From an uncultured Actinomycetes bacterium (GTDB taxonomy: Bacteria > Chloroflexota > Dormibacteria > Dormibacterales > Dormibacteraceae): a stretch of DNA of 64,000 bases. Under the pieces are notes generated by a model that did not search any database, was not told the DNA's origin, and saw nothing but the letters and a program-made list of their open reading frames with translations. Positions 25,080 through 50,336 of this stretch are shown piece by piece; position 1 is the stretch's first letter, and each line of letters begins with the position of its first letter. The position numbers and the translations under genes were made by a program. The DNA lies in assembly GCA_964640005.1 (NCBI GenBank), contig CAZXGB010000001.1, positions 103,456-167,455 on the forward strand. Direction: 5' to 3'.

Positions 25080-25089
25080 GGAACCGCGT

Positions 25090-28489: not shown

Positions 28490-31400
28490 TCCGGCGCTAC
28501 TGGCGCGCAGCGTGGACCTTCGTGCCGTACCTGGGCCGCTACAAGCGGCTGGCGGCGGGATCGATCGTGCTCACGGTGTTCGGCGCGCTGGCCGACCTGG
28601 CCTCGCCGTGGCCCTTCGCCCTCCTGGTCGGCTACGTGCTGGTGCGCAAGCCCCCGCCCGCGCCCATCAGCGACATCTTCGGCCTCAACGCCGGCGTGCT
28701 GATCACGGCGGCGGTGACCGGTGGCTTCCTCCTCGTTTTCATCGTGCACGGCATCGCGGTGCTCAGCGAATGGATCAACACCAGGCTCGACCTGTCCATC
28801 GCGCTGGACTTCCGGAGCCGGCTGTTCGCGCACTGCCTCGAGCTGAGCGACTGCTTCACGGACGAGGCGGCGCCCGGTGACTTCATGTACCGCATCAACT
28901 ACGAGGCGCGGTCCGTCGGCGCGATGGCGGTCGCGGTCCCACCGCTGGCGCAGAGCCTGATCACACTGATCGGCTATTTCGTGATCGCGCTGAGCCTCGA
29001 TCCCGTGCTCGCGCTGCTGGCGCTGACGGTCGTGCCCTTCATCTACTACTCGACCGGCTATTACGCGAAGCGCATCGAGCCGCGCCTGGTCACGGTCCGG
29101 GGCCTGGAGGGCATCTCGCTGACGATGGTCAACACAGCGATGTCGATGATCCACGTCATCACGTCGTTCAACCGGCAGCGCGACGAGCACCTCCGCTTCA
29201 GACACCAGGGCGAGCGCGCGCGGGACATGCGCGTCGGCGTGACGGTGCGCCAGACGGTCTTCTCTCTGGTGGTCGCCCTGATCACGGCCGGCGGCACCGC
29301 GGCCGTGCTGTACGAGGGAGCGCAGCACGTGCTCAGCGGGCGCACGTCCATCGCCGCGCTCCTGGTGCTGATGGCGTACATCGCGTCGATGTACAAGCCG
29401 CTCGAGGCCCTGGCGCACACGGCCTCCCAACTCCAGGTGCTCTGCGTGAGCATCATGTTCTCCCGCCAGCTGCTCGAGCGGCAGCCGCTGGTCACCGAGC
29501 GGCACGGCGCCGTCGACATCCAGCGGGTCGCGGGCCACGTGCGATTCAAGCAGGTCGGCTTCGATTACCCGGGCCGGTCCGGAATCCTGCAGGACATCGA
29601 CTTCGAGGTCCAGCCGGGCGAGATGGTGGCCGTCGTGGGCATTACCGGCGCGGGCAAATCGACGATGCTTCAGCTGCTGCCGCGCTTCTTCGATCCGACG
29701 ACGGGCTCGATCGAGATCGACGGGCACGACCTGAGGGACCTCAAGCTCATGTCACTCCGTCACCAGATCGCGATGGTCAGACAGGAGCCGCTGCTGTTCC
29801 CGCGCAGCGTCGCGGAGAACATCGGCTACGCCAGGCCCGACGCGACGATGGAGGAGATCCAGGCCGCGGCCAGGGCTGCCAACGCTCACGACTTCATCGA
29901 GGCCCTTCCGCTCGGATACGAGACGGTGCTGGGCGAGCGGGGCGCGCGCATCTCCGGCGGCGAGAGGCAGCGCATCGCGCTGGCCCGGGCGTTTCTGAAG
30001 GACGCGCCGATCCTCGTGCTCGATGAGCCCACCTCTTCGATCGACTCGCAGACCGAGGCCGGGATCCTCGAGGCGCTGGAGCGCCTGACCGCCGGGCGGA
30101 CCACGTTCATTGCCGCGCACCGGCTGTCCACCATCCGGGCGGCGGACCGAGTGCTCGTGCTCGATCACGGGCGGCTGATCGAGAACGGCACGCCCGCCGA
30201 GTTGATGGGGAGGGACGGCCAGTTCGCCATGTTCAGCCGGCTGCAGAGCTTCGTCCCCAACCGTGAGGCGGCCGGCGCGAACGGCGCGAACGGGCACCAT
30301 ACCGTCGGGGAAGAGGAGCCGGAGGAGATCGCGGCCCCGAAGGCCGGCCGGCTCCTCGAGCGCAACACGCTGGTGCAGCTGGTCGACCGGGCCCAGACCC
30401 GCGGCGGCCGATACACCGGCAGCATCCGGTTGAAGCACCGGAAGGGAAGCGGAGTGATCTTCGCCGAGAACGGCGATTTTCACTCAGCCGACGGCGAGCT
30501 GGCCTCGGGCGACGAGCTCGTGATCCTCGCCCTGACGTGGCGGGACGACGAGTTCACTCTGACCATCGACCCCGAGGCTCCCCTGCCGGGAACCCGGAAC
30601 ATCACGATGTCGTACCGCGACATGCTGGCCGAGGCCGCCCGCCGGCAGACGGCGGCCTGGAGGCCGGGCCGCTCCGGTCGCGGGCGAAAGACGGCCGCGC
30701 CCGCCCCGCCCGCCCCGCCCGCGCCCCGGACCCCGGCGACCGAGCCGCCGGCCAGGCCGCAGCCGCCGCCCGCGCTCACCCTCTCCGTCGCCCTGCCGTC
30801 CACGCGGCCCAGCGTCGTCCTCCTGGGCAGCATGAGCCCGATGCCGGTCGGCGGCGTCATCTGGCAGACCCTGCAGTACATCGTCGGCTTCCAGCGCTTG
30901 GGCTATGACGTGTACTACGTCGAGACGCACGGCCGCTACCCGCACGAGATCACGCGGCGCTCAGACGAGGACGGCACCGCGCTCGCGGTCGAATTGATCC
31001 GTTCGGCGATGGCCAGAGTGAACATGGCCGGCCGGTGGTGTTACGTCGACGTGCACAACGAAGAGCGGCACCACGGAATGACGAAGGCCGAGCTCGATCG
31101 TCGCTACGAGGAGGCCGCGGCGCTGATCAACCTCCACGGCGGCACAGTCCCGCTGCCTCAGCACACAAAAACGGGGCGCCTCGTCTACCTGGAGACGGAC
31201 CCGGTGCCGATCCAGGTGGGAGTGGCCAACGGCAACCAGGTCGACATCGACTTCCTGGCTATGCACGACGCGCATTTCTCGTACGGCGAGAACTACGGCG
31301 CGCCCGACTGCCGCGTCCCGCAGTCGCCTCGCTTCGACTTTCAGCCCACGCGACAGCCGATCGTGCTCGAGTACTGGCCGTTTGCCGGCCAGACGTCACG

Positions 31401-31998
31401 GCCGTTCACCAGCGTCGGCAACTGGAACCAGCATCAGGACGTGACGCTCGACGGCGAGATTTACACGTGGAGCAAGCGGGTCGAGTTCCTGAAGTTCATC
31501 GACCTGCCGCGCCGGTCCGGCGCGCGCATGGAGCTCGCGCTGTCGCAGTGCGGACCCGACGATGCCGCGCTGCTGCGGGTCCACGGCTGGAACGTGCTCG
31601 ACGCGCTCGAGTTCTCGTACGACGCGGACGCCTACCGCGCGTATATCGCGGGCTCGCGCGCGGAGTTCACCGTCGCCAAGGACCAGAACGTGAGGCTGCG
31701 CAGCGGCTGGTTCAGCGACCGCAGCGCGAGCTACCTCGCCTCGGGCCGGCCGGTGGTCACGCAGGACACCGCGTTCGGCAACATCCTTCCGACCGGCGCC
31801 GGACTATTCGCCTTCTCGACCATGCAGGAGGCGGCGGAGGCGGTCAGGCGCATCGAGTCCGACTACGACCGGCAGCGGCGGGCCGCCCGCCGGATCGCCG
31901 AGGAGTGGTTCGACTCGGACATCGTGCTCGGCCGCCTGCTGCGCGATCTCGGCCTGCCCGTCACAGGCCGGCGCCGCACCCTCGCCGCGGCCCGCTAG
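28486..31998 (+). CDS. Tripartite fusion: type-1 ABC exporter (TMD+NBD) + DUF4388/PATAN-like domain + Pro-rich linker + GT-B-like domain (paralogue family)
   Basis: Six N-terminal TM segments. Walker A GITGAGKST, signature ISGGERQRIALARA, Walker B ILVLDEPTS, H-loop IAAHRL (to about 30250). The segment at 30343-30570, YTGSIRLKHRKGSGVIFAENGDFHSA...ELVILALTWRDDEFTL, reads as DUF4388-like. PAPPAPPAP linker at 30685-30774. From 30808 to the end it is homologous to 33256-34392, 34389-35501 and 42124-43296. Confidence 0.9.
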   Translation: MIRRYWRAAWTFVPYLGRYKRLAAGSIVLTVFGALADLASPWPFALLVGYVLVRKPPPAPISDIFGLNAGVLITAAVTGGFLLVFIVHGIAVLSEWINTRLDLSIALDFRSRLFAHCLELSDCFTDEAAPGDFMYRINYEARSVGAMAVAVPPLAQSLITLIGYFVIALSLDPVLALLALTVVPFIYYSTGYYAKRIEPRLVTVRGLEGISLTMVNTAMSMIHVITSFNRQRDEHLRFRHQGERARDMRVGVTVRQTVFSLVVALITAGGTAAVLYEGAQHVLSGRTSIAALLVLMAYIASMYKPLEALAHTASQLQVLCVSIMFSRQLLERQPLVTERHGAVDIQRVAGHVRFKQVGFDYPGRSGILQDIDFEVQPGEMVAVVGITGAGKSTMLQLLPRFFDPTTGSIEIDGHDLRDLKLMSLRHQIAMVRQEPLLFPRSVAENIGYARPDATMEEIQAAARAANAHDFIEALPLGYETVLGERGARISGGERQRIALARAFLKDAPILVLDEPTSSIDSQTEAGILEALERLTAGRTTFIAAHRLSTIRAADRVLVLDHGRLIENGTPAELMGRDGQFAMFSRLQSFVPNREAAGANGANGHHTVGEEEPEEIAAPKAGRLLERNTLVQLVDRAQTRGGRYTGSIRLKHRKGSGVIFAENGDFHSADGELASGDELVILALTWRDDEFTLTIDPEAPLPGTRNITMSYRDMLAEAARRQTAAWRPGRSGRGRKTAAPAPPAPPAPRTPATEPPARPQPPPALTLSVALPSTRPSVVLLGSMSPMPVGGVIWQTLQYIVGFQRLGYDVYYVETHGRYPHEITRRSDEDGTALAVELIRSAMARVNMAGRWCYVDVHNEERHHGMTKAELDRRYEEAAALINLHGGTVPLPQHTKTGRLVYLETDPVPIQVGVANGNQVDIDFLAMHDAHFSYGENYGAPDCRVPQSPRFDFQPTRQPIVLEYWPFAGQTSRPFTSVGNWNQHQDVTLDGEIYTWSKRVEFLKFIDLPRRSGARMELALSQCGPDDAALLRVHGWNVLDALEFSYDADAYRAYIAGSRAEFTVAKDQNVRLRSGWFSDRSASYLASGRPVVTQDTAFGNILPTGAGLFAFSTMQEAAEAVRRIESDYDRQRRAARRIAEEWFDSDIVLGRLLRDLGLPVTGRRRTLAAAR

Positions 31999-32002
31999 GG
32001 CG

Positions 32003-33259
32003 ATGTCTGGAGCCGCTTTCCCGCCAGACCTGGACCTGCGGCTGGTGTCCAAGCGCCCGGCCAGGCTTGCGGCCGAGACCGAGCGGTTCGTGCTGGACGC
32101 GCCGGCTCCGGCGCCTCCCGCGCCGGCCCCGGCGGGCGAGCCTGCGGCGTCGATCGTGGTGCTCACGCACGACAACCTGGCGTTCTCCCGGCTCTGCCTG
32201 GAGAGCGTGCTGGCGTCGCCTGAGCAATGTCCCTTCGAGCTGGTCGTGGTCGACAACGCATCGCGGGACGGCACCCCGGCCTACCTGCTCGAGCTCGCGG
32301 CGCGCGACGCCCGCGTGCGTCCGATCCTCCTGGGCACCAATCTCGGCTTTGCGGCCGGCGTGAACCTCGGACTGGACGCGGCGCTGGGCGGCGCCTTCGT
32401 CCTGCTGAACAACGACACCGTGGTGGCCCCCGGCTGGCTGACGCGGCTGCTGCGCCACCTGGACGAGCCCTCGGTCGGCCTCGCCGGCCCGGTGACAAAC
32501 GAAGCTCCGGGCCTGGCCCGCGTCGGCGTCTCCTACCGGACGTACGGCGAGTTCCTCGAGGCCGCGCGCGCCCGCGGCCGCGAAGGCGCTGGGGTCGATA
32601 CGGACCGGCTGACGCTGTTCTGCGCCGCGCTCAAGCGATCGGTGTACGAAGCGGTCGGCCCGCTGGACGAGCGCTTTGCCGTCGGGATGTTCGAGGACGA
32701 CGACTACTGCCTGCGCATCGAGGCCGCGGGCCTGAGGTGCCGGCTGGCGGAGGACGTGCTGGTCCACCACTTCGGCGAGGCGTCGTTCGGGCGGCTCGTG
32801 AGCGGAGGGGCGTGGAAGTCGATCTTCGCCGCGAACCGGCTGCGCTTCGAGGAGAAGTGGGACCGCGAATGGCCCGGGCACACCGCCCGCGACGAGCCCT
32901 CGTACCTGGACCTCGTGCGGCGCATGCGGTCGCTGGTCGAGACGCTTCCCGATAGCGCGCGCGTGCTCGTGGCGACCCGCGGCGACGACCGCATGTGCGC
33001 CATCCCGGGCCACACCGCGGGCCACTTCCCGCAGCTCCCCGACGGCACGTACGCGGGCAGCTACCCGGCGGACGACGACGCCGCGATCCGGCAGCTCGAG
33101 GATCTGCGCTCGCGCGGATGGACGCACATCGCGCTTCCCAACCCCGCGCGCTGGTGGCTCGACCACTATCCGCTCATGTCGCTGCACCTGGAGCGCTCCG
33201 GGGGCGCCGTGCTGGACGACCCGGCCACAGGCGTCGTGTTCCGGCTGGCGCCGTCGTGA
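32003..33259 (+). CDS. GT2 glycosyltransferase with C-terminal ~115-aa accessory module
   Basis: SIVVLTHDNL, VVVDNASRDGT, LLNNDTVV, FEDDDYCLR. The C-terminal module is homologous to the repeats of 48409-49131. Confidence 0.85.
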   Translation: MSGAAFPPDLDLRLVSKRPARLAAETERFVLDAPAPAPPAPAPAGEPAASIVVLTHDNLAFSRLCLESVLASPEQCPFELVVVDNASRDGTPAYLLELAARDARVRPILLGTNLGFAAGVNLGLDAALGGAFVLLNNDTVVAPGWLTRLLRHLDEPSVGLAGPVTNEAPGLARVGVSYRTYGEFLEAARARGREGAGVDTDRLTLFCAALKRSVYEAVGPLDERFAVGMFEDDDYCLRIEAAGLRCRLAEDVLVHHFGEASFGRLVSGGAWKSIFAANRLRFEEKWDREWPGHTARDEPSYLDLVRRMRSLVETLPDSARVLVATRGDDRMCAIPGHTAGHFPQLPDGTYAGSYPADDDAAIRQLEDLRSRGWTHIALPNPARWWLDHYPLMSLHLERSGGAVLDDPATGVVFRLAPS

Positions 33260-34392
33260 GCATCGCGATCGTCGCGAGCGCCCTGGCCAACAAGCCGCGC
33301 AACGGCGGCTTCGCCTGGGTGCCCCTGTCGTATGCCCTCGGTCTGCGCCGCCTTGGATTCGACGTGTACCTGTTCGAGCAGATGCGGACCGAGGGCCCGG
33401 CCGGCCCGGAGTTCTTCCAGGACGTCGCGCGGGATTTCGGCTTCGAAGGGCGCAGTGCGCTGCTGCAGGGTGAGCGGGCCCTCGCGGGGCTCGAGCCTAC
33501 GCGGGTACGTGAGGTCGCCGTGGAGGCCGAGCTCCTGGTCAACGTCAGCGGCCACGCGACGCTCGACTGGATCGTGAACGGGCCGCGGCGGGCGGTGTAC
33601 ATCGACACCGATCCCGGCTTCACGCAGGTCTGGCACCGCGACGGCCTGCTGCACCGCAGCATCGCCGAGCACGACGTCTTCTTCTCGGTCGGCTGCAACC
33701 TCGGCCGCGGCGGCTCGTCCTCGGTGCCAGAGGACGGCGTGGACTGGTGGCCCCTTCCGCCTCCGGTCGTGCTCGACGAATGGCCCGTGGTCGAGGAGCC
33801 GGCCGGTGAGGATGTCCGTTTCACCACCGTGTCCACGTGGCGCTGTCCGTCGGGGACGGTCAGCCTCGACGGAGTGACCGACCTTCCGGCCAAGCATCAC
33901 GAGTTCCGCAAGCTGCGGACGCTCCCGGGGCTGGCGCCCCGGGCGCGCTTCGAGATCGCCCTCGACATCGCGCCCCAGGACGCGGCCGATCGGGACGCGC
34001 TCCTGTCGGGCGGCTGGTCGCTCGTCGACCCGGACGCCGTGGCCGGCGACCCCGCCTCGTTCCGGCGGTACGTCGGAGGGTCGGGTGCGGAGCTCTCGCC
34101 CGTCCAGGGTGTGTACTCCGCGGCGAGAACGGGGTGGATCAGCGATCGCAGCGTCCGCTACCTCGCCAGCGGGCGGCCGGTGCTGGTCCAGGACACGGGC
34201 GTATCGCCCGATATCGCGCGCGGCGAAGGCCTGCTCACCTTCACGGATTTGGCGGAGGCTCGCTCGCAGGCCGAGCGGATCCTGTCCGACTACGGCGCCC
34301 ACGCGGCGGCGGCCCGGGACCTCGCCGAGACCGTCTTCGACTCGGACCGGGTGCTCGGCGAGATGCTCGAGCGGGCGGGCGCGAAGCCGTGA
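33256..34392 (+). CDS. GT-B-fold-like putative glycosyltransferase (unassigned family, CgeB/Glyco_trans_1_2-like C-terminus), paralogue 2
   Basis: GTG 33256 overlaps the upstream stop (GTGA). N-terminus IAIVASAL..GGFAW..LGLRRLGFDV. Conserved blocks VYIDTDPGFTQVW, PPPVVLDEWP, GWISDRSVRYLASGRPVLVQDTG, GEGLLTF, FDSDRVLGEML. Confidence 0.7.
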   Translation: MSIAIVASALANKPRNGGFAWVPLSYALGLRRLGFDVYLFEQMRTEGPAGPEFFQDVARDFGFEGRSALLQGERALAGLEPTRVREVAVEAELLVNVSGHATLDWIVNGPRRAVYIDTDPGFTQVWHRDGLLHRSIAEHDVFFSVGCNLGRGGSSSVPEDGVDWWPLPPPVVLDEWPVVEEPAGEDVRFTTVSTWRCPSGTVSLDGVTDLPAKHHEFRKLRTLPGLAPRARFEIALDIAPQDAADRDALLSGGWSLVDPDAVAGDPASFRRYVGGSGAELSPVQGVYSAARTGWISDRSVRYLASGRPVLVQDTGVSPDIARGEGLLTFTDLAEARSQAERILSDYGAHAAAARDLAETVFDSDRVLGEMLERAGAKP

Positions 34393-35501
34393 GGGAAAGA
34401 AGGGGGACGGTCGCAATCGCCGGCGCGATCGCGCAGCGTCCCGGACGCGGCGGACATGCGTGGGTGTTCCTGCAGCACCTCCTCGGCCTGCGCCGGCTCG
34501 GCTGGGACGTGGTCTTCATCGACCGCGTCGAGCCGGGGATGGCGGCGGACGTCGATTACGTCGCCGCGGTGATGGACGAGTTCGAGATCCCTTATTCGGT
34601 GCTCGACGGCGCCGGCGGCGCGTTCGGCCTCGGCCGCGAGGCGCTCGCGCGCAGGTTGAAGGGCGCCGCCATGCTGGTGAACGTGATGGGCTATCTCGGA
34701 GACGAAGACCTCCTGGCGCTGCCCGAGCGGCGTGTCTTTCTCGACCTCGATCCGGGCTTCACGCAGATGTGGCACGCGCTGGGCCTCGCTCAGATGGTGC
34801 GCGGCCACGACGCGTACGTGACCGTCGGCGAGAACATCGGCCGCGAGGGCTGCGCCATCCCGACCTGCGGCGTGGAGTGGGTCACCACCCCGCCTCCGGT
34901 CGTGCTGGACGAATGGCCGTGGAGCGGCGAGGAGGGGCGCTCGGTCACCGGCATCGGAAGCTGGCGCGGCCCCTACGGGCCGGTCCGCTACGGCGACGTG
35001 GACTACGGCCTGCGCGTGCACGAGTTCAGAGCTTTCGCCGGCGTGCCCGCGCGCTGCGCGGCCCAGGCGTTCGAGTACGCGCTCGACATCGATCCGATGG
35101 AGGTCGCCGACGTCGACCTGCTGACGCGCGGCGGCTGGCGGCTGCTGCCCCCGGACGCGGTCGCGGCCACGCCGAGCCGGTACCGCGAGTTCGTTCAGGG
35201 CTCCATGGCCGAGTTCATGGTGGCGAAGGGCATGTACGTCAAGTCCCGCAGCGGCTGGTTCAGCGACCGCAGCGCGTGCTATCTCGCCAGCGGCAGGCCC
35301 GTCATCGCGCAGGACACCGGCGGCGCAAAGCACGAGGCGGGACTGCTCTCGTTCGCCACCGCGGAAGAGGCGGTCGAGGCGGTCGGCCAGGTGATGGCCG
35401 ACTACCCGCGCCACCGGCGCGCCGCGCGCGATATCGCCGAGGGCTGTTTCGACTCCGACCGCGTGCTCGGGCGGCTCGTCGACCGGGTGCTCGCGGCATG
35501 A
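34389..35501 (+). CDS. GT-B-fold-like putative glycosyltransferase, paralogue 3
   Basis: GTG 34389 overlaps the upstream stop (GTGA). It has the same conserved blocks (FLDLDPGFTQMW, PPPVVLDEWP, SGWFSDRSACYLASGRPVIAQDTG, FDSDRVLGRL). Confidence 0.7.
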   Translation: MRERRGTVAIAGAIAQRPGRGGHAWVFLQHLLGLRRLGWDVVFIDRVEPGMAADVDYVAAVMDEFEIPYSVLDGAGGAFGLGREALARRLKGAAMLVNVMGYLGDEDLLALPERRVFLDLDPGFTQMWHALGLAQMVRGHDAYVTVGENIGREGCAIPTCGVEWVTTPPPVVLDEWPWSGEEGRSVTGIGSWRGPYGPVRYGDVDYGLRVHEFRAFAGVPARCAAQAFEYALDIDPMEVADVDLLTRGGWRLLPPDAVAATPSRYREFVQGSMAEFMVAKGMYVKSRSGWFSDRSACYLASGRPVIAQDTGGAKHEAGLLSFATAEEAVEAVGQVMADYPRHRRAARDIAEGCFDSDRVLGRLVDRVLAA

Positions 35502-36505
35502 ACCCGGCGGTCCGCCGGCGGGTGGCGGCGGCGGTGAGCGACTGGGTGGCAGACGAGCATGGAGCCGCGGTCGAGCGGATGAGGATCACCCGTTCCGCAT
35601 ACGCGAGCAGCGCTTCGATCCTCAACGTGCACCTGACGCTCGCCGGCGGGGAGCGCGTGCGCGCCGTCTACAAGGCGGCCGGCGCGGGCGCGCAGCTGCC
35701 CGCGGCGCGCGGGGTCAAGCCGGAGGCCGTCTGCGACCCGGGCCGCGAGACGTGGGTCTACGAATCGGTGCTCGCCGGCGACGGCGTCGCGGACGCCCCG
35801 CGCCTCCTGTCCTCCGGCACGCTCGCGGACGGCGGGCGCTGGCTGCTGCTCGAGTGGGCCGGCAGCGTGGACCTGGGGCAGGTCGGCGACCGGGCGGTCT
35901 GGAGCGAGGCGGCCGCCCGGCTGGCGCGGATGCACGCCTGGGGCGAGGCGCGGGTCGACGGCCTGGTTCGTGGATCGGCGCTGCGCTGGGACGACCCGGC
36001 CCTGCACCTGATGTGGGCCCGGCGCGCCCGAGACTCCTACGCGGGCGAGAAACGCGATCCGCTGGCCCCGCTCTGGGACCGGTATGCCACCGTCGCCGAA
36101 CGGGTCGCGGCCCTGCCCGGGACGCTCGTCCACGGCGATCTCAACGCGGCCAACGTCCTGGTCACGCGCTCCCCGGCGGGAATGCGCATCCGCTTCATCG
36201 ACTGGGAGACGGCGGGCGTGGGCCCGGGTCTGCTCGACCTCGCCTCGCTGACCAGCGGCAGGCTGCCGGAGAAGCATCGGGCCGCGATGCTGGCCGCGTA
36301 CCGCGCGAACCTGGGCCCGAGCCGGCTGGGCGCGCTGCCCGCCGCCGACTTCGACGAGGCGCTCGCCTGGTGCCGGCTGGCGCTCGCCGTGCAGTGGCTG
36401 GGCTGGTCGCCGGGCTGGTCGCCGCCGCCCGCGCACGCGCACGACTGGCGCGCCGAGGCGCTCGGGCTGGCGCGGAGACTCGGCGTGGTGGAGGTGGCGG
36501 AGTGA
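35498..36505 (+). CDS. APH/choline-kinase-fold small-molecule kinase
   Basis: ATG 35498 overlaps the upstream stop (ATGA). Catalytic loop LVHGDLNAANVLV and FIDWETAGVGPGLLDLA (Brenner/DFG-like) motifs. Confidence 0.8.
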   Translation: MNPAVRRRVAAAVSDWVADEHGAAVERMRITRSAYASSASILNVHLTLAGGERVRAVYKAAGAGAQLPAARGVKPEAVCDPGRETWVYESVLAGDGVADAPRLLSSGTLADGGRWLLLEWAGSVDLGQVGDRAVWSEAAARLARMHAWGEARVDGLVRGSALRWDDPALHLMWARRARDSYAGEKRDPLAPLWDRYATVAERVAALPGTLVHGDLNAANVLVTRSPAGMRIRFIDWETAGVGPGLLDLASLTSGRLPEKHRAAMLAAYRANLGPSRLGALPAADFDEALAWCRLALAVQWLGWSPGWSPPPAHAHDWRAEALGLARRLGVVEVAE

Positions 36506-37323
36506 GCGCGGCCGTGCACCCGCGTTCCTTCCTCTTCGTGACGCTGGACTCCTGCCGCTACGACACGTTCGTGAGCGCCTCGACGCCGGCCTTCGATCGA
36601 GTCGGTGTGACGCATCGCGCGATGGCGCCGGGCAACTACACGTACGCGTCGCACGCGGCGATGTTCGTCGGCTTCACCCCCGGCGTCTTCGAGGTCGACG
36701 AGCCCTTCGTCAACCCGAAGTTCGGGCGCATCTTCAAGATGGCCTATCCGCCGCCGCTGCACACGCGCCGCGATTTCGTCGCGCTCGAGGGCGCCAACAT
36801 CGTCGAGGGCTTCGGCCGGCTCGGCCACACGACGATCGGCACCGGCGCGGTGGGCTGGTTCGACCCCAAGGCGCCCACGGCCCACGTCCTCACCGGCTCG
36901 TTTCAGCGCTACCTCTACCCTGGCAACCCGTGGTCGCTGCGCCGCCAGGTGGCCTTCGTGGAGGAGGAGCTTGACCGCGCCGGCGACGCGCCCGTTCTCG
37001 TGTTCGTCAACGTGGGCGAGACGCACGTCCCCTACTACCACGAGGGCGCGCCGTGGTCGCCCGACGACAACCCGTGCGTCCCGTTCTCCAAGACCAACGA
37101 CGCAGCCGAGTCCCGCCGGCGCCAGACCGCCTGCCTCGAGTGGGTCGACCGGGAGCTCGCGGGGGTCGTGGAGCGCTTCGCCGGGGCGAACGTCCTGATC
37201 TGCGGCGACCACGGGGACGCGTGGGGCGAGGACGGCCTGTGGGAGCACGGAATCCATCATCAGAAGGTGCTCGAGGTGCCGCTTCTGATGAAGCTGTCCA
37301 ACCCTCCGGCGCCGGTCCGGTAG
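36502..37323 (+). CDS. Alkaline-phosphatase-superfamily enzyme (type I phosphodiesterase/phosphotransferase-like)
   Basis: GTG 36502 overlaps the upstream stop (GTGA). FLFVTLDSCRYDTF (metal-site Asp block), NYTYASHAAMFVGFTPG (candidate nucleophile Thr), ICGDHGDAWGEDGLWEHG. Confidence 0.65.
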   Translation: MSAAVHPRSFLFVTLDSCRYDTFVSASTPAFDRVGVTHRAMAPGNYTYASHAAMFVGFTPGVFEVDEPFVNPKFGRIFKMAYPPPLHTRRDFVALEGANIVEGFGRLGHTTIGTGAVGWFDPKAPTAHVLTGSFQRYLYPGNPWSLRRQVAFVEEELDRAGDAPVLVFVNVGETHVPYYHEGAPWSPDDNPCVPFSKTNDAAESRRRQTACLEWVDRELAGVVERFAGANVLICGDHGDAWGEDGLWEHGIHHQKVLEVPLLMKLSNPPAPVR

Positions 37324-37382
37324 CGCCCGGCGTTCGCCGTCCGATTACCCGCCCTTAGCCATCGGGCGGATAGCCTCCCAAC

Positions 37383-39119
37383 GTGGGCGGGGACTTGGAT
37401 CCGCCGGCGCACGTCCTCCGGGGTGAGCCCCTTCCGGACGGGGCAGAGGCGTCGCTCCTGGACGCGATCGACCGCCACGCGGTCGAGATGCCGGAGCGAA
37501 GGGCGCTCGAGCTTCCCGAGCAGGGCATGACCATCTCGTGGCGGGAGCTCCGGCAGAGATCGCTCGAGGTCGCGGCGGCGCTGCGGGACTCCGGCGTGCG
37601 CCGCGGCGAGCTGGTGGGCCTGATGCTGCGGAACGACGAGCTGTTCGTGCCCGGGCTCCTCGGCATCCTCCATCTGGGCGCCGTCGCGGCGCCGATGCCG
37701 ATTCCGGGCGCGTTCGCGGACGTCGAGGTGTACGCCGAGCACATCCGCGGGATGATCGCGGCGGCCGGCCTGCGCCACGTGCTGCACGACTCGTCGCTGC
37801 CGAGCGAGCACACGCAGGCCGCGGTGCGCGGCAGCGCCGAGATCACGTGGATCGACGGCTCACCCCGGCGGCCGGAGCGCGAGTTCGAGCCCCGCGAGCG
37901 TCCGGCGCCCGGCGACCTGGCGCTCGTCTCCTACACCTCCGGCAGCACGTCCGCCCCGAAGGGGGTCGAGCTGACCCACGCCAACGTGTCGACGGCGATC
38001 AGCGCCTTCGGCGTGGCGACCGGCCTCGGCCCGGACGACGCGTGGGGCGTGTGGACCCCGCTCTTCCACGACTTCGCCCTGATCTCGATGCTCACCGCCC
38101 TGGTCTTCGGAGCCGCGGTCTGGATCTGGTCGCCCACGCGGTTCATCCGCAACCCCGGGCGCTGGCTCGCCGAGTTCGGGCGCGGCGGCTGCACGCACTA
38201 CTCGGGCCCGAACTTCAGCTTCGATCTGATGCGCGACTCGGCCACGGACGAGGGCCTCGCGGGCGTCAGCCTCGCCGCCTGGAGGGTGGCGGTCAGCGGC
38301 GGGGAGCCCGTGAGCGCCGCCACCGTGAGTCGCTTCACCGAACGCTTCGCCCCCTACGGCGTGCGCCCGGAGACGATCGTGCCCGGATACGGCCTCGCCG
38401 AAGCCACCCTGGCCGTCTCGGTGCCGGCTCGGAACACGCGGCCGCGCGTGGTCACCGTCAGCCGCGAGGGCCTGACGGAGCGGCGGCGCGTGGAGCACGT
38501 CGAGCCAGGAGATCCCGGAGCCCGCGCCCTCGTCTCGGTCGGCAGGGCCGCGCCCGGGATCGAGGTGCGCATCGTGGACGGTCTGCGTCAGGACCTCCCC
38601 GACGGCCATGTGGGCGAGATCGAGGTCCGCGGCCCCTCGGTCACGCGCGGCTACCGCGGGCACCCGGACGCGGCCCCTGACGGCTGGTTCAAGACCGGGG
38701 ACCTGGGCTTTGTCGAGGACGGAGGACTCTTCATCTGCGGCCGGATCAAGGACGTGGTCAACGTGCGCGGGACCAAGTACCACCCCGAAGACCTCGAGCC
38801 GATCGCCGGCGAGGTGGAAGGGGTGCGCAAGGGCCGCTGCTGCGTCGTGGGCGAGGGCGAGACGCATGAGCGCATGGCGGTCATCGCCGAGACGCGCCTG
38901 CGTGGGGAGGACCTGGGTCGCCTCCGGACCGAGATCGAGGAACGCCTCACGCGCCGGCTGGGCATCGGGGACATCAGGGTGTACCTGGTCGAGCCCCGCA
39001 CGATCCAGGTGACGAGCAACGGCAAGGTGCGGCGCCAGCTCATGCGGCGCCGGCTCGAGAGCGGCGAGCTGGCCGACCTGGAGAGCGTGGCCCGCGAGGC
39101 TGAGGTCCCGGTCGCATGA
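37383..39119 (+). CDS. Fatty-acyl-AMP/CoA ligase (adenylate-forming enzyme)
   Basis: Motifs VSYTSGSTSAPKGVELTH, PLFHDF, YGLAEATL, FKTGDLGF, GRIKDVVNVRGTKYHPEDLE and a terminal SNGKVRR. The start is uncertain (GTG 37383). Confidence 0.85.
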   Translation: MGGDLDPPAHVLRGEPLPDGAEASLLDAIDRHAVEMPERRALELPEQGMTISWRELRQRSLEVAAALRDSGVRRGELVGLMLRNDELFVPGLLGILHLGAVAAPMPIPGAFADVEVYAEHIRGMIAAAGLRHVLHDSSLPSEHTQAAVRGSAEITWIDGSPRRPEREFEPRERPAPGDLALVSYTSGSTSAPKGVELTHANVSTAISAFGVATGLGPDDAWGVWTPLFHDFALISMLTALVFGAAVWIWSPTRFIRNPGRWLAEFGRGGCTHYSGPNFSFDLMRDSATDEGLAGVSLAAWRVAVSGGEPVSAATVSRFTERFAPYGVRPETIVPGYGLAEATLAVSVPARNTRPRVVTVSREGLTERRRVEHVEPGDPGARALVSVGRAAPGIEVRIVDGLRQDLPDGHVGEIEVRGPSVTRGYRGHPDAAPDGWFKTGDLGFVEDGGLFICGRIKDVVNVRGTKYHPEDLEPIAGEVEGVRKGRCCVVGEGETHERMAVIAETRLRGEDLGRLRTEIEERLTRRLGIGDIRVYLVEPRTIQVTSNGKVRRQLMRRRLESGELADLESVAREAEVPVA

Positions 39120-39772
39120 GGCGTGCCCTGGCCCGTCTTCTGCTCGCGTCCGCGAGCGCGGCCGTGCTCGGCGCCTGTGGTGGCGCCCAGCCCGGTGCTC
39201 CGGACTTCCGGCAGGCCTTTGGCGTGATCGACGCTCCTTGCGCCGCCGGGCTCGCGCCGTCGACGGCCGTGCAGCATTGCGTCGCGCACGTGGTGCTGCA
39301 GGACGCGGGCGGTGAGGGAATCGGGCACGCCACCCTCCAGGTCCCGCTGAAGGCCGCCAGGACGGGCTCGCCCCTGGCCCCCGCCGTCTGCGGGATGGCC
39401 ATCCCCGACACTCCCGCGGGCGGCTACTCCGACCTCGTGTGCAACTTCGACGTGCCGCCTGGCGACACCATCGCCGGCTTTCCCGTCATCGGGTCCATCG
39501 ACTACGCGACGGGCAGCACGCGCACCTCCGCCGGGTTCGACTTCGGGGGCGCCGGCTCTCTGATTCTGGCCGCGGCCACGCTGCTGCTCGCGCTGGCGCT
39601 GCTGCTCGCGGCGCCCTGGCGGCGGGGCACGCCCGCGGTCCTTCTCGCTCCGGCCGCCTCGGCAGACGAGCTCGGGCCCGACCGGTCGCCCGAGTCCCGG
39701 CCGGCGCCGCGTGTGATGGAACGGAGGCGCGACGTGGACGCCGAGTACGACCTTCCCTCGATTCCCCGCTGA
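39116..39772 (+). CDS. Cys-rich lipoprotein with C-terminal TM anchor (paralogue A)
   Basis: ATG 39116 overlaps the upstream stop (ATGA). Lipobox AAVLGAC. Conserved HCVAHVVLQDAGGEGIGHATLQVPL...CGMAIPDT...DLVCNFDVPPG, then the hydrophobic segment LILAAATLLLALALLLAAPW and a charged tail. Confidence 0.7.
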   Translation: MRRALARLLLASASAAVLGACGGAQPGAPDFRQAFGVIDAPCAAGLAPSTAVQHCVAHVVLQDAGGEGIGHATLQVPLKAARTGSPLAPAVCGMAIPDTPAGGYSDLVCNFDVPPGDTIAGFPVIGSIDYATGSTRTSAGFDFGGAGSLILAAATLLLALALLLAAPWRRGTPAVLLAPAASADELGPDRSPESRPAPRVMERRRDVDAEYDLPSIPR

Positions 39773-39773
39773 G

Positions 39774-41498
39774 GTGGCGTTGGGAGAACCGGCCGCGACC
39801 CTGACCGGCGCGAGGCCTGAGATCGACGCCGGCTTCGAGGTCGAGGCGGGCGAGGAGCGCGTGGCCTGGTGGAGGAGGGTGTCGCCGTGCAGGGGGGCCG
39901 AGATCCTGGTGGCTGTCGTATCGGCGGCGATCGCCGTGGCTTGGATCCTGGTGGACCGCACGACTCCGCCGTGGGACGAGGCCCGGTACCTGCTTGACAC
40001 GCTCCAGTGGGTCCAGGCGCTTCACTCCGGCGGCCTTGGCGGCCTGGTCAACGCCTTCTTCACCGTGGACACGGCCTACGGCCCGGGCTATCTGGCGGCG
40101 GTGTTTCCGATCTTCCTCGCCTTCGGCCCTTCGGACCAGGGCGCGCTGGCCGCGAACGTGGTGCTGTGGATCGTGCTGCTTCTGTCCGTCGGCTCCATCG
40201 CGAGGCAGCTGTTCGGCCCGGTCGCCGGCCCGGTCGCGATGGCCGTGACGGCCATCAGCCCCATCCTTCTCTGGCTCCTCCATCACGCGCTCGTGGACCT
40301 CGGGGCCGCCACGTGGACCTGCCTCTCGGTCGTGGCAATGCTGCGGAGCCGGCACTTCACCCGCCCGCTGCCGGCGGCGCTCGCCGGCCTCTGCGCAGGC
40401 GTGGGCCTGCTGACGAAGGTCAGCGTCGTGATCTTCCTGGCGGGACCTGCCCTGGTGATCGGGGTTCGGGCGCTGGTCCGGCTGCGCAGCGCGTCGACCG
40501 CGAAGCGGTGGCGGGTCATGGGAAACCTGGCGCTGGCCCTCGCGACCCTGCTCGCCGTGGCCGGGCCCTGGTACCTGACCAACCTGCAGAGCACGATCGG
40601 CTACATCCATTCGGCCGCGTTCGGCGTCGGCGCCGCCGGCACCGGCCCGGCCAACCCGCTGGCCCCCTCGGCGATCGCGCAGGTGATCCTGATGATCGTG
40701 AGCGATACCCCCTGGATCGTCGTCGCGGCGAGCCTGCTGCTGGCCGCCCTCCTGGTGTGGGAGCGCCGGGGGGCGAAGAGCGTGAGCAGGCCGGGCCGGG
40801 TCTGGTCGTGGCTGGTCCTGCTCGCGATGGCGGGGCTGCCGGTGGCCGCGGTCGCCACCTCACAGGACCAGGCTTCGCGGTACGCGGCCGTCACCTTCCC
40901 GGCGCTGGCGATCATCTTCGCCGCGCTCGTCGCCACCACGCGACGGCGCCCCGTCCAGGTGGCGGCCGTGGCGGCGGTGCTGGCGTTCGGCGTGGCGCAG
41001 ATCGCGGTGTCGCAGATGCCGATCGGCAACTCCTATCAGCGCGGCAAGCTCGTCTGGGTGAGGCACGGCTGGTATGGCATGGACTTCTTCGGCCCGGCCT
41101 ACCCGTACGCGAACTCAGCGGGCGACGACGGGACTCCGATCATGGCCGCGCTCGAGTCGGTGGCCAAAGCCCGCCCGCTTCGCGTGATGATCGCCCAGGA
41201 CGACCACACCACGAACCTGAACACCCTCAGGTGGCTGTCGGCGACGCGGCACGACGACTTCACCTTCGAGCTGCCGCCTGTGGTGGTCGCGGACCCAGCA
41301 CAGCTGAGCACGTACGACGTCGCGCTCTACATTCCGAGCGCCGAGGTCGTGCGGCGCAACAACACCGCGCGAGCGGACATCCTGAACGCCGAGACGCCCT
41401 CGACGGTCTTTGGAGCCCAGCTCTTCACGATCTTCGCCCACGCCCGCCACGAGGTGAGGCTGCCCGGCGGCACGACGGCCTGGGTTCTGGAGCGCTGA
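39774..41498 (+). CDS. GT-C-fold glycosyltransferase (ArnT/PMT_2-like, polyprenyl-phosphate-sugar dependent)
   Basis: At least 10 TM segments. A first-loop acidic motif TPPWDEARYL follows TM1, and there is a C-terminal soluble domain. GTG 39774 is the start. Confidence 0.75.
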   Translation: MALGEPAATLTGARPEIDAGFEVEAGEERVAWWRRVSPCRGAEILVAVVSAAIAVAWILVDRTTPPWDEARYLLDTLQWVQALHSGGLGGLVNAFFTVDTAYGPGYLAAVFPIFLAFGPSDQGALAANVVLWIVLLLSVGSIARQLFGPVAGPVAMAVTAISPILLWLLHHALVDLGAATWTCLSVVAMLRSRHFTRPLPAALAGLCAGVGLLTKVSVVIFLAGPALVIGVRALVRLRSASTAKRWRVMGNLALALATLLAVAGPWYLTNLQSTIGYIHSAAFGVGAAGTGPANPLAPSAIAQVILMIVSDTPWIVVAASLLLAALLVWERRGAKSVSRPGRVWSWLVLLAMAGLPVAAVATSQDQASRYAAVTFPALAIIFAALVATTRRRPVQVAAVAAVLAFGVAQIAVSQMPIGNSYQRGKLVWVRHGWYGMDFFGPAYPYANSAGDDGTPIMAALESVAKARPLRVMIAQDDHTTNLNTLRWLSATRHDDFTFELPPVVVADPAQLSTYDVALYIPSAEVVRRNNTARADILNAETPSTVFGAQLFTIFAHARHEVRLPGGTTAWVLER

Positions 41499-41512
41499 AC
41501 CCTAGGGCTTCG

Positions 41513-42130
41513 TCACCAGGTGCCGTCGTCGTCGCGCCGGTCGTCGGGCGATTCGCCCGCCTCCTGTCCTTCGACCGCGGAGGAGCCCCGCTCCGGGCCT
41601 GACGATGACGGCGCGAGCCGCCCGGCTGCCGCCGCGCCCAGCGTCACCAGGGCGAGGACGGCCGCGACCAGGGCCAGCGCGAAGGTCCCCATGCCGCCGC
41701 CGGCACTCGACGACCCGCCCGCGGCGGCGGCGGAGAAGTCGACCGCCTGCAGGATCGGGACCGAGGCGACCGTCTTGCCCGCGGGCAGGTCGAAGTCGCA
41801 TGTCAGGTCGACCCCGCCACCCCCGGCCGTGTCTGGGATCGAGCGTCCACACGTCGCGGCCGAGGCCGTTCGGGCCGAGGTGGCCGCGCTGGAATCCCTG
41901 AGCGGAACGACGATCGTGGCGTGGCCGATCCCCTCGCCGCCGTGGTTGACCAGCAGCACGTGAGCGGTGCAGTGCGTCGCGGCCCCGGTCGCCCCGACGC
42001 CGCAGGGCCGGTCGACGGTGCCGTACGCCTGCACGAATTCGGGCGGCCCCTGCAGCGACCCGCCACACGCGGCGGCCAGGGGCAGCAGCAACAATGCGAC
42101 CGCCGGGACCCGGCGGAGAGGCCTCAGCAC
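41513..42130 (-). CDS. Cys-rich lipoprotein with C-terminal TM anchor (paralogue B)
   Basis: GTG 42130 overlaps the stop of 42124-43296 by 7 nt. Lipobox LPLAAAC. It has the same HCTAHVLLVNHGGEGIGHATIVVPL...CGRSIPDT...DLTCDFDLPAG core, a TM segment and an acidic tail. Confidence 0.7.
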   Translation of the reverse strand: MLRPLRRVPAVALLLLPLAAACGGSLQGPPEFVQAYGTVDRPCGVGATGAATHCTAHVLLVNHGGEGIGHATIVVPLRDSSAATSARTASAATCGRSIPDTAGGGGVDLTCDFDLPAGKTVASVPILQAVDFSAAAAGGSSSAGGGMGTFALALVAAVLALVTLGAAAAGRLAPSSSGPERGSSAVEGQEAGESPDDRRDDDGTW

Positions 42131-43296
42131 CGCGCCACCTCCCTGGTGAACGCCGCGTCGAGCATCTCTCCCAGGACCCTGTCCGAGTCCAGGTGCTCCA
42201 CGGCGATCGCTCGCGCCGCGGCCGAGTGGCGCGCATAGTCCGAGTTGACGGCGGCGATGCACTCCGCGGCTCCCTCGGCGTCCTCGAAAGCCAGCAGGCC
42301 CTCGCCCACGGGCAGATGGCGCTCGAAGCCGGTCGACGCGGTGACCACCGGCCGGCCGGCTGCCAGGTAGCAGGCGCTCCGGTCGCTGAACCAGCCGGAG
42401 CGCGAGTCGACATAGCCGCTTTTTGGGATCCCGATCTCGGCCCGCGACGAGCTGACGAAGTCCCGGTACGAAGAGGTGTCGAACGCAACCGACGCGGGTG
42501 AGATGATGCGCCACCCGCTCGCGGCCAGCGCCTCCAGGTCGGGCGTCTCTTCGGCGTGGATGGCCAGGGCCAGGAGCAGCGGCTGGGACGTGAGACTCGG
42601 GAGCGCCATCAGCCTGCGCATCGTGTGCACGCGCTGTCCGTAGCGCAGGCCCGCGTGCTCGATCGAGCCGTAGCCGCGCCAGTGTCCGACGGTCGTCATC
42701 TCGGGCCGCGCCTCGGCCGGAGCGGCAGGCCACTGCTCGAGCACGACCGGCGGTGCGATCTTGATCCAGTCCAGGCCGCAGGTGGGGATGGAGCACCCGG
42801 CCTCGCCGATCCCCCGCCCCACGGTCACGAAGCGGTCGTGGCGGCCGAGGCCCATGTCGATTCCCACGGCCGAGTGCCACAGCTGCGTGAAGGCCGGGTC
42901 GAGGTCGACATAGACACGGAGCCGGGGAGTCCCGAGGAGCGTCTCTTCCGTCAGGACGCCGGAGAGGTTGAGGAGCAGGTCGGCGCCGCCGCTGAAGCGT
43001 CGGAGCTCCGATGGCGGGACGCCCGCGCTGGAGCCGCCGCCGCGCTCGAGCAGCGTCCACGAGTAGTCCAGGCCGAACTCAGCCATGGTCGCCGCCAGGT
43101 AGGCGGCGTTTTCAGAGACCTCCAGCGCCGCGCCCGCCGGGCGCAGCGACCGGCGGTCGAGCGTCTCCACGAAGTGCACCTTCCAGCCCAGGCGCCGCAG
43201 CCCGAGCAGGAACTGCAGCACCGCCCATGTCGCGCCACCCTGGTGGGGCTCCGCGCAGATCATGCCGCTGACCAGTGCCCGTCCGGCGGAGGTCAT
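42124..43296 (-). CDS. GT-B-fold-like putative glycosyltransferase, paralogue 4
   Basis: GGATWAVLQFLLGLRRLGWKV, VYVDLDPAFTQLW, APPVVLEQWP, SGWFSDRSACYLAAGRPVV, GEGLLAF, LDSDRVLGEML. Confidence 0.7.
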   Translation of the reverse strand: MTSAGRALVSGMICAEPHQGGATWAVLQFLLGLRRLGWKVHFVETLDRRSLRPAGAALEVSENAAYLAATMAEFGLDYSWTLLERGGGSSAGVPPSELRRFSGGADLLLNLSGVLTEETLLGTPRLRVYVDLDPAFTQLWHSAVGIDMGLGRHDRFVTVGRGIGEAGCSIPTCGLDWIKIAPPVVLEQWPAAPAEARPEMTTVGHWRGYGSIEHAGLRYGQRVHTMRRLMALPSLTSQPLLLALAIHAEETPDLEALAASGWRIISPASVAFDTSSYRDFVSSSRAEIGIPKSGYVDSRSGWFSDRSACYLAAGRPVVTASTGFERHLPVGEGLLAFEDAEGAAECIAAVNSDYARHSAAARAIAVEHLDSDRVLGEMLDAAFTREVARC

Positions 43297-43297
43297 A

Positions 43298-43561
43298 TCA
43301 GAGTGCCCTTGCGGCGGCCAGCTTCGTGGTCACGAAGCGGGTGATGGCCGCGACGCTTTCGAAGTTCGTCCAGGTGAGCTCCTCGTCGGGCACCTCGATG
43401 TGAAAGGTCTGCTCGAGGAAGGCGACCAGCGTGAACACGCCCACCGAGTCGAGGATGCCGGCCCTGACCAGCGACCCCGTGTCCGTCAGCTCGAGGTGAC
43501 GCTTGTCCGCCGGACGCGTGGCCAGGATATGGGCGCGGACCTGCTCGGAGATCGAGGTCAT
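43298..43561 (-). CDS. Acyl carrier protein
   Basis: 87 aa. The phosphopantetheine site context is GILDSVGVFTLVAFLE. ATG 43561 overlaps the upstream stop (ATGA). Confidence 0.8.
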   Translation of the reverse strand: MTSISEQVRAHILATRPADKRHLELTDTGSLVRAGILDSVGVFTLVAFLEQTFHIEVPDEELTWTNFESVAAITRFVTTKLAAARAL

Positions 43562-50234: not shown

Positions 50235-50246
50235 GGACAGCGCAAC

Positions 50247-50336
50247 GCTAAGGCCGGCGAGTTAAGGGCAGGACGGCCGCCAGTTAAGGCTTCCCGGCCC
50301 GGCCCGCGGCCGGGAAGTAGATAACCCGCAGATAAC
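50247..50336. promoter_or_regulatory. Repeat-rich divergent control region (sulfotransferase operon / pstCAB)
   Basis: Three TAAGG-core repeats (50249-50253, 50263-50267, 50285-89; the last two are 22 bp apart). Perfect 10-bp inverted repeat cttcccggcc (50290-50299) / ggccgggaag (50308-50317). Direct repeat AGATAAC at 50319-50325 and 50330-50336 (11-bp phasing). Confidence 0.4.

Follow-up and report, generated by a model that had tools for sequence, protein, structure and literature searches.

What do four mutually similar genes from a sequence family without a name contribute to a single bacterial locus? The question is raised by a 64,000-nucleotide stretch of DNA (the window; positions 103,456 to 167,455 of contig CAZXGB010000001.1, assembly GCA_964640005.1), which has a GC content of about 70% and comes from an uncultured bacterium placed by GTDB in the Dormibacteraceae. 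The initial annotation, made from the sequence alone, described the genes as paralogues of an unassigned, GT-B-like family that had undergone a local four-fold expansion, and suggested stepwise addition of several sugars. We conclude, with a probability of roughly 0.6, that the four genes together represent a full '3+1' set from an ancient GT-B-fold family and form the skeleton of a cytoplasmic glycan assembly cassette that depends on an ATP-binding cassette (ABC) exporter.

The paralogy is clear. The four segments, at 30808-31998, 33256-34392 and 34389-35501 on the forward strand and at 42124-43296 on the reverse strand (copies 1 to 4), are open frames by translation and align end to end in MAFFT. 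The alignment, which the initial annotation had envisaged for defining invariant residues, contains 78 invariant columns at a mean column identity of 57%; pairwise identity is about 35-45% among the four, and 34-36% relative to copy 1. BLASTP between the copies gave E-values from 2e-46 (copies 1 and 2) to 3e-103 (copies 3 and 4) with about 370 residues covered, so the similarity is far beyond chance. The collinear blocks, namely GGxxW..LGLRRLG, VYxDxDPxFTQxW, PPVVLxxWP, SGWFSDRSxxYLAxGRPV and FDSDxVLG, are all present, the second and third in divergent form in copy 1. A hidden Markov model (HMM) of the family matched the window at 30796-31962, 33247-34389, 34389-35498 and 42139-43299, and these four places were its sole matches both in the window and in the whole 3.3-Mb metagenome-assembled genome (MAG), which is about 65% complete. 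Four paralogues with shared blocks at one locus are thus established by MAFFT, BLASTP and the family HMM alike.

Three of the copies are stand-alone genes. Copy 1 is instead a domain (about 30796-31998; family HMM 441 bits) at the C-terminal end of a single uninterrupted open reading frame (28486..31998, +; ATG at 28486, TAG at 31998), which opens with an MsbA-type ABC exporter, transmembrane and nucleotide-binding domains included, and continues through a linker of about 170 residues. The exporter part matches PF00664 and PF00005, and the only NCBIfam matches of the frame are to MsbA-like ABC-transporter models, all under their cut-offs. The linker itself has a weak DUF4388 match (E 0.012) and a PAPPAPPAP stretch, and its counterpart in a related genome, G033, is 53% identical.

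What fold do these proteins adopt? Copy 4 was modelled with AlphaFold2 (AF2) from a 38-sequence alignment, and copy 1 from an alignment of its own clade (c1, see below). The models have predicted local distance difference test (pLDDT) scores of 94.2 and 90.8 and predicted template modelling (pTM) scores of 0.93 and 0.91, respectively, and the order of secondary-structure elements in copy 1 is the same as that in copy 4. Foldseek searches of the PDB returned 246 matches for copy 4 and 208 for copy 1 at E<=1e-3, and the top 50 of each were all GT-B transferases. For both models, the matches have E-values of 7e-12 to 3e-7, template modelling (TM) scores of about 0.4 to 0.68, and identities of 8-16%; they include tll1591/TeGSS, ManT, BshA, MshA, PimA, HepE, GlgM, glycogen synthase, TreT and T4 alpha-glucosyltransferase. 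The top 50 for copy 4 are GT4-, GT5- or GT72-type transferases throughout, and those for copy 1 are mostly of these types, joined by the natural-product and C-glycosyl enzymes AviGT4, UrdGT2, LmbT, LpCGT and SenB. The top match, tll1591 (TeGSS, 7fga), is a UDP-glucose-dependent retaining alpha-1,2-glucosyltransferase (PMC9909042). On these models, the four-copy family is a GT-B family whose nearest relatives are retaining GT4-type enzymes such as tll1591, ManT, BshA and PimA. The GT-B-like assignment was thus correct according to both AF2 and Foldseek. The contrary outcome named at the time, an ATP-grasp or other non-transferase fold, did not appear: there was no ATP-grasp Pfam match, and no such fold in the Foldseek top 50 of either model.

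Does a GT4-like fold make these proteins members of GT4? Their sequences indicate that it does not. None of the four copies matches PF00534 in a Pfam scan, and a six-frame scan of the whole genome found 47 PF00534 (GT4) domains, 0/47 on the four copies. Nine GT4 proteins from the same genome, which carry the canonical GRLxPxKG and EGxGLxxLEAMAxGxPV blocks, were aligned (A3) and compared with the family profile (A2) by hhalign; the probability was 4.3%, and the sole aligned stretch was YLA(S/A)GRPV against EAMAxGxPV. In this register, the second Glu of the EX7E motif falls on position 309 and the first on the conserved G301 (residue numbers here and below are those of copy 4). Position 309 reads C/C/R/S in the four window copies and is C, T, R or A, never Glu, across 196 family domains; aligned in this way, the EX7E motif is absent from the family. 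Canonical GT4 membership is ruled out by the lack of a PF00534 match, the hhalign result and the failure of EX7E. In fold, then, these are GT-B proteins with a GT4-like architecture and N-terminal Gly loop, whereas their sequence signature marks them as a family apart. The initial annotation, which had held that the conserved blocks were not those of GT4, was right about the sequence motifs and not about the fold and the logic of the Gly loop. As an aside, 47 PF00534 domains in a 3.3-Mb, about 65% complete assembly make this an unusually glycosyltransferase-rich small genome.

A second proposed affiliation was that of the C-terminal half with CgeB/Glyco_trans_1_2 (PF13524). A weak match exists in the C-terminal ~90 residues of copy 4 (26.9 bits, against a gathering threshold of 25) and in copy 1 (21.5 bits, at residues 1088-1181 of the fusion protein), and copy 2 scores 12.4 bits. 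The resemblance is generic, however. In the six-frame scan of the genome, PF13524 scored ordinary GT4 proteins at up to 45 bits, above copy 4 (28) and copy 1 (25.2), and missed copies 2 and 3; among 120 listed homologues, about 25 have a precomputed PF13524 match. A specific CgeB relationship is not supported on these grounds, and only the weak match of copies 4 and 1 is left of the proposal. For CgeB, the prototype of PF13524, transferase function is itself only putative, the UDP-Glc-dependent activity being weak (PMC13577073). Beyond PF13524, the three stand-alone copies have no NCBIfam match, and copy 3 has no Pfam or NCBIfam match at all. PDB sequence searches with the family profiles gave marginal hits only, to GtfB (3qkw/3rhz; E 0.05 over 55 residues) and WbaZ, and a few homologues carry the Joint Genome Institute (JGI) label 'glycosyltransferase involved in cell wall biosynthesis'. 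The family remains unassigned, as originally stated, with no curated Pfam or NCBIfam model covering it.

How old are the four copies? A FastTree phylogeny of 196 family domains resolves four clades with Shimodaira-Hasegawa-like supports of at least 99, and exactly one window copy falls in each. Clade c4 (56 rows, with copy 4) lies immediately upstream of a kinase gene in 34 of the 56; c3 has 47 rows, with copy 3, and c2 has 50, with copy 2; c1 (21 rows, with copy 1) is typically found directly downstream of an ABC exporter. The nearest relatives of each window copy come from other phyla and are not the neighbouring copies. Each clade spans 6-9 phylum labels, and c2, c3 and c4, the triad, occur together in 37 loci, usually in tandem; the duplications are therefore older than the cassette's spread. 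Of the 49 loci of at least 15 kb, 29 contain three copies, 10 two, 6 four and 4 one. What had been read as a four-fold expansion is, by the tree, a conserved 3+1 set of four ancient clades without any local expansion.

The notion that the copies are ordinary GT4 genes recently duplicated in this lineage, as normal polysaccharide-locus redundancy, can draw on the GT4-rich genome (47 PF00534 matches) and on the JGI label of a few homologues, but is practically untenable, being refuted by the tree and the profile comparison: none of the 47 matches lies on the four copies, hhalign against the genome's GT4 profile gives 4% probability, the closest relatives of each copy are in other phyla, and the four-copy cassette is also present in G033.

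A further 22 family domains (in loci L065, L066, L073, L078, L083, L085, L091, L092, L094 and L096-L100) lie outside the four clades. Binatia, deltaproteobacterial, Verrucomicrobiota and Methylacidiphilaceae bins contribute most of them. These domains are without H224 and R227, and mostly have an ABC exporter and no kinase; they may represent an older or simpler form of the cassette.

Conservation across the 196 domains outlines a putative active site. Positions conserved at 93% or more are D133, P134, Q138, H153, W189, T201, W206, W262, S284, E287, G301, W302, S304, R306, Y310, A312, G314, P316, T322 and G333, and of these, D133, E287 and R306 occur in 196/196 domains, with H153, S284 and G301 in almost all. 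All four clades appear to share one putative pocket comprising D133, H153, S284, E287, G301-W-x-S304 and R306; with these residues retained throughout, no clade has the appearance of a degenerate pseudoenzyme. A second group sets the triad apart. R207, H224 and R227 are present at 98-100% in c2, c3 and c4, together with W140, D131, W177 and Y295, whereas c1 has lost them. The three basic residues lie at the start of the C-domain, in the sequence region of the GT4 GRxxxxKG block, with an inserted hairpin separating them. In GT4 enzymes, the basic residues of that block bind the donor diphosphate. Given where R207/H224/R227 lie in the sequence, the triad is more likely to use nucleotide sugars, and c1 to have another role or donor. 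Within the triad, clade c2 shows a paired change: the otherwise invariant K292 is Q in 46/50 domains, and position 309, which is C, T or A in the other clades, is Arg in 35/50. The pair has the look of a positive charge that has moved within the putative donor site, one change offsetting the other.

Which genes accompany the family? Neighbours were clustered in 80 loci from heuristic gene calls together with HMM and tblastn coordinates, and cluster representatives were scanned. The family itself was recovered in 78/80 loci, an APH-fold kinase in 42/80, a YdjC-type carbohydrate de-N-acetylase in 27/80, a sulfotransferase in 20/80, an ABC exporter in 18/80, a fusion of a GH-A-like (glycoside hydrolase) domain with GT2 in 16/80, GT2 in 11/80, DUF4185 in 9/80, a methyltransferase in 8/80, GT4 in 7/80 and a DegT aminotransferase in 6/80. 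No nucleotidyltransferase was found among the conserved partners in this clustering. The kinase follows the triad closely: it accompanies the full triad in 28/28 loci and c4 in 34/35, versus 3/14 loci without c4. Its putative catalytic residues (K59, E84, HGDxxxxN at 212-219, and D235) are conserved across 46 orthologues, and a PDB sequence search with it gave no usable match and no specific similarity to anomeric sugar kinases. The c1 clade keeps different company, with an ABC exporter in 10/14 of its loci and the GH-GT2 synthase in 8/14.

Natural gene fusions tell a similar story. Among representative proteins, nearly all the multidomain ones are c1-type: ABC-c1, c1-GT2 (P0134, P0135, P0140 and P0146), c1-TPR-GT2 (TPR, tetratricopeptide repeat) and c1-GT2-GT4-methyltransferase, with the ABC exporter joined upstream of c1 and the other partners downstream. 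Outside c1, there is one c4-APH fusion (P0127) and one c2-c4 fusion. Partner counts and fusions together support a division into two modules, one of the triad with the kinase and the other of exporter, c1 and GT2 or synthase. The obligate APH-fold kinase and the distinct character of the fused copy 1 had both escaped the initial annotation.

In the window, a GT2 glycosyltransferase gene (32003..33259, +; PF00535 E 9e-23) starts 4 nt past the stop codon of the fusion frame, and has a 60% identical orthologue at the same position in G033; in other genomes, this partner is often found fused to c1-type copies. Copy 2 (33256..34392, +), copy 3 (34389..35501, +), the APH-fold kinase (35498..36505, +; PF01636 E 1e-15) and an alkaline-phosphatase (AlkP)-superfamily hydrolase of the STM4013/SEN3800 family (36502..37323, +; NF038075 E 1.7e-40, under cut-off) follow, each overlapping its predecessor by 4 nt, with GTGA at the GT2/copy 2 and copy 2/copy 3 junctions, ATGA at the copy 3/kinase junction, and GTGA again at the kinase/AlkP junction. 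Because of these overlaps, the five genes, from GT2 to the hydrolase, are considered translationally coupled. Clade membership of the copies was assigned from the family HMM and the tree. Copy 4 (42124..43296, -) was assigned in the same way, with the AF2 GT-B fold in addition, and sits in a convergent operon. As for the gene after the kinase, most related loci have a YdjC-type de-N-acetylase there, and the window and G033 have the AlkP-superfamily hydrolase. The latter was found only in the window and G033 and not in other related loci, and no YdjC homologue was clustered from the part of the window included in the clustering (20-52 kb).

The family is large. At E<=1e-3, a word-seeded search returned 7,013 clusters (90% identity), of which all but a few bear the label 'hypothetical protein'. 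An exhaustive profile search with cut-offs of E<=1e-3, 1e-10 and 1e-30 returned 5,117, 3,165 and 1,196 clusters (50% identity), respectively. Species-representative genomes contain 458 family loci. The best 79 of these 458 are all in MAGs with at least 10 phylum-level labels; the commonest carrier among them is Solirubrobacterales, after which come Acidobacteriota, Verrucomicrobiota, Planctomycetota, Gemmatimonadota, Chloroflexota and Binatia, with deltaproteobacterial/Myxococcota bins, Trueperaceae, Margulisiibacteriota and Methylacidiphilaceae as other carriers. Among 40 relatives of the window's genome, just 2 carry the family. Thus, the family is scattered within lineages yet occurs widely across them. 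One of the two is G033, which has the whole cassette in the same order at 50-75% amino acid identity to the window, including the AlkP-type hydrolase (75% identical) and the GH-A-GT2 fusion (64% identical), the latter beside the ABC gene. The G033 MAG (only 2.7 Mb; cassette on contig C3, DATMMS010000003.1, locus L022) is titled 'Candidatus Solibacter sp.' (Acidobacteriota), yet the genome is placed in the class of the window's genome; either the record title or the class assignment looks inconsistent, or the bin is mislabelled.

The fixed set, triad with kinase and c1 with ABC exporter, suggests an uncharacterised envelope-glycan pathway. From the fold, paralogy, orthogroups, partners, fusions and residue conservation described above, catalysis, donor type, order of action and the substrate of the kinase may be proposed as follows. 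The c2, c3 and c4 proteins would be active sugar transferases using nucleotide-sugar donors, each responsible for adding one sugar to a conserved oligosaccharide unit. Phosphorylation of this unit by the kinase would decorate it, mark it for recognition in the next step, or end the chain in the manner of WbdD. Tethered to the exporter, c1 would couple chain synthesis to export with the adjacent GT2 and the GH-GT2 synthase; alternatively, it may use a different donor or serve as a scaffold or acceptor-binding domain. Tailoring in the window would fall to lineage-specific enzymes (the sulfotransferase, the STM4013-type AlkP hydrolase, an acyl-AMP ligase with hydrolases, and a GT-C protein), and elsewhere to the YdjC de-N-acetylase and methyltransferases. 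The recurrent de-N-acetylase, sulfotransferase and kinase partners suggest that the glycan is charged. The stepwise addition of several sugars put forward in the initial annotation is plausible by analogy.

Several points weigh against this proposal. First, the ribose-binding second Glu of EX7E is never present, and nucleotide-sugar use is thus not guaranteed. Second, the putative roles of R207/H224/R227 in diphosphate binding and of D133/H153/E287/R306 in the cleft are assigned by sequence position relative to GT4. Third, the co-occurrence counts derive from related, non-independent genomes, and the loci were seeded with a copy-4-centred profile. Fourth, copy 4, elsewhere usually adjacent to the kinase, is displaced from it in the window. 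Fifth, the best NCBIfam matches of the kinase are weak and heterogeneous. Finally, literature searches on the family, on a cassette of YdjC, sulfotransferase and glycosyltransferases, and on CgeB/YkvP turned up no description of the family and no biochemistry of any member.

Could the paralogues be subunits of one hetero-oligomeric enzyme, with one catalytic and the others activators, chaperones or acceptor-binding subunits, as in GtfA/GtfB or Alg13/Alg14, and with c1 a non-catalytic tether? Such an arrangement would suit the strict co-occurrence of c2, c3 and c4, usually in tandem, as well as the natural c2-c4 and c4-kinase fusions; the only PDB sequence match is to a non-catalytic GT-B partner, GtfB (E 0.05), and c1 is without R207/H224/R227, W140 and Y295. 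The GtfB match is marginal, though, and covers 55 residues only. More tellingly, the pocket residues D133, H153, S284, E287, GWxS and R306 are kept at about 100% in all clades, whereas non-catalytic partners usually lose such residues. We therefore regard the hetero-oligomer as unlikely, while noting that it and stepwise catalysis are not mutually exclusive.

The absence of the EX7E ribose-binding Glu raises another issue, namely whether the GT-B fold here works without classical Leloir chemistry. The enzymes would then use a sugar-1-phosphate donor made by the kinase, in the manner of a synthetic phosphorylase, or transfer phospho-groups (sugar or alditol phosphate) as TagF does. Anomeric sugar kinases with the APH fold exist (NahK, AmgK and Mak), the kinase is obligate for the triad, three extra basic residues are kept in the triad alone, and the conserved partners include no nucleotidyltransferase. 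Set against this, both Foldseek top-50 lists consist of nucleoside diphosphate (NDP)-sugar transferases, with no TagF-like enzyme or phosphorylase, and the kinase has no specific similarity to anomeric sugar kinases. The basic residues, moreover, occupy the sequence position of the diphosphate-binding GRxxxxKG block of GT4, and there is a simpler precedent for the kinase in those that modify finished glycans (WbdD, WaaP and POMK). On balance, non-Leloir chemistry seems to us quite improbable.

A bolder idea, and a long shot, is that triad and APH-fold kinase form a nucleotide-independent glycan builder. The kinase would produce a sugar-1-phosphate or add phosphate to the growing chain, and the three paralogues, which have no EX7E ribose-binding Glu but retain the three basic residues specific to the triad, would use that phosphate ester directly as donor or as obligatory handle, perhaps within one heteromeric complex. 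If true, a GT-B family found widely among the dominant uncultured phyla of soil would have a new donor chemistry.

We accordingly retain the proposal of a 3+1 set of transferases in an exporter-dependent cassette, and turn to the other genes around it. Upstream of the fusion frame lies a candidate synthase, a fusion of GH-A-like, GT2 and membrane parts (25958..28489, +; PF00535 E 6.5e-32 and a weak PF02836 match). The convergent operon that holds copy 4 is headed by a sulfotransferase gene (49152..50261, -; PF13469 E 5e-10). A canonical GT4 gene (PF00534, PF13439) and a further GT2 gene, at 47102-48874 (-) and 45174-47387 (-), also belong to this operon and lie between an alpha/beta hydrolase gene and the sulfotransferase gene. 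Further PF00534 matches occur at the left edge of the window (1-525) and upstream of it (C1:98695-99177 and 101417-101866). The family genes are flanked by two further genes, one for a Wzy_C/O-antigen-ligase-like protein with C-terminal TPR repeats (23487-25109, -) and the other for a GT-C (PMT_2-like) membrane protein (39774-41498, +); both recur in 0/49 related loci and look lineage-specific.

The 3+1 architecture, the obligate kinase and the exporter fusion provide a concrete cassette for an undescribed cell-envelope or extracellular glycan. The family has no Pfam or NCBIfam model of its own and no name, although its members form some 1,200 clusters at 50% identity and over 7,000 at 90%; its carriers, in at least 10 phylum-level lineages, dominate soils, and the cassette is widespread in uncultured soil and freshwater bacteria. 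Once its chemistry is defined, the result would be a GT-B family with a non-EX7E active site and better annotation for thousands of 'hypothetical proteins'. New in the present work are the orthology of the four clades, the association of triad and kinase in 28/28 loci, the fusion behaviour of c1 together with its loss of basic residues, the failure of EX7E, and the genericness of PF13524.

How does the family compare with known enzymes? The retaining GT4-type transferases (7fga; ManT, 7qsg; BshA, 3mbo; MshA, 3c48; PimA, 2gej; HepE, 4xsu) share the two-Rossmann GT-B fold, in which a C-terminal helix crosses back, and match the family models at Foldseek E-values of 7e-12 to 1e-8, TM scores of 0.55-0.68 and identities of 10-16%. 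Like them, the family has an N-terminal Gly loop (P..GG..W) followed by an amphipathic helix, an A-x-G-x-P-V strand after the Calpha4 helix and, in the triad copies, basic residues at the start of the C-domain that may correspond to those of GT4. Unlike theirs, its C-domain contains an additional helix and a beta-hairpin insertion, as seen in the AF2 model of copy 4, and the family has an invariant set of its own, comprising DxDP..Q, H153, S284-x-x-E287 and GWFSDRS. As for CgeB/YkvP, the PF13524 model ranks canonical GT4 proteins of this genome higher than copies 4 and 1 (21.5-25.2 bits for the latter, depending on the scan).

At the level of the system, two comparisons stand out. GtfA/GtfB, the O-GlcNAc transferase of serine-rich-repeat adhesins, is likewise built from paralogous GT-B proteins, which there form an obligate pair, and GtfB (3qkw, 3rhz) is the sole PDB protein besides WbaZ with any sequence-level match to the family, marginal and local as that match is. 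The catalytic residues are gone from GtfB, however, while the common putative pocket is retained in each of the four clades here. The closer parallel is the E. coli O9a system, in which the chain is made in the cytoplasm by GT4 mannosyltransferases, capped by the kinase-methyltransferase WbdD and then exported by an ABC transporter (PMC3482155). There, too, several GT-B paralogues (WbdA/WbdB/WbdC), a eukaryotic-like/APH-type kinase (WbdD) and an ABC exporter (Wzm/Wzt) are encoded at one locus, and the glycan is completed in the cytoplasm before export, as we propose here; the methyltransferase function of O9a has a possible counterpart in the methyltransferases of 8 related loci. There are differences too. 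By their sequences, the transferases of the cassette fall outside GT4, its kinase stands alone as an APH-family protein and has no coiled-coil ruler like that of WbdD, and in place of Wzm/Wzt with its carbohydrate-binding module there is an MsbA-type half-transporter fused to a domain of the family itself.

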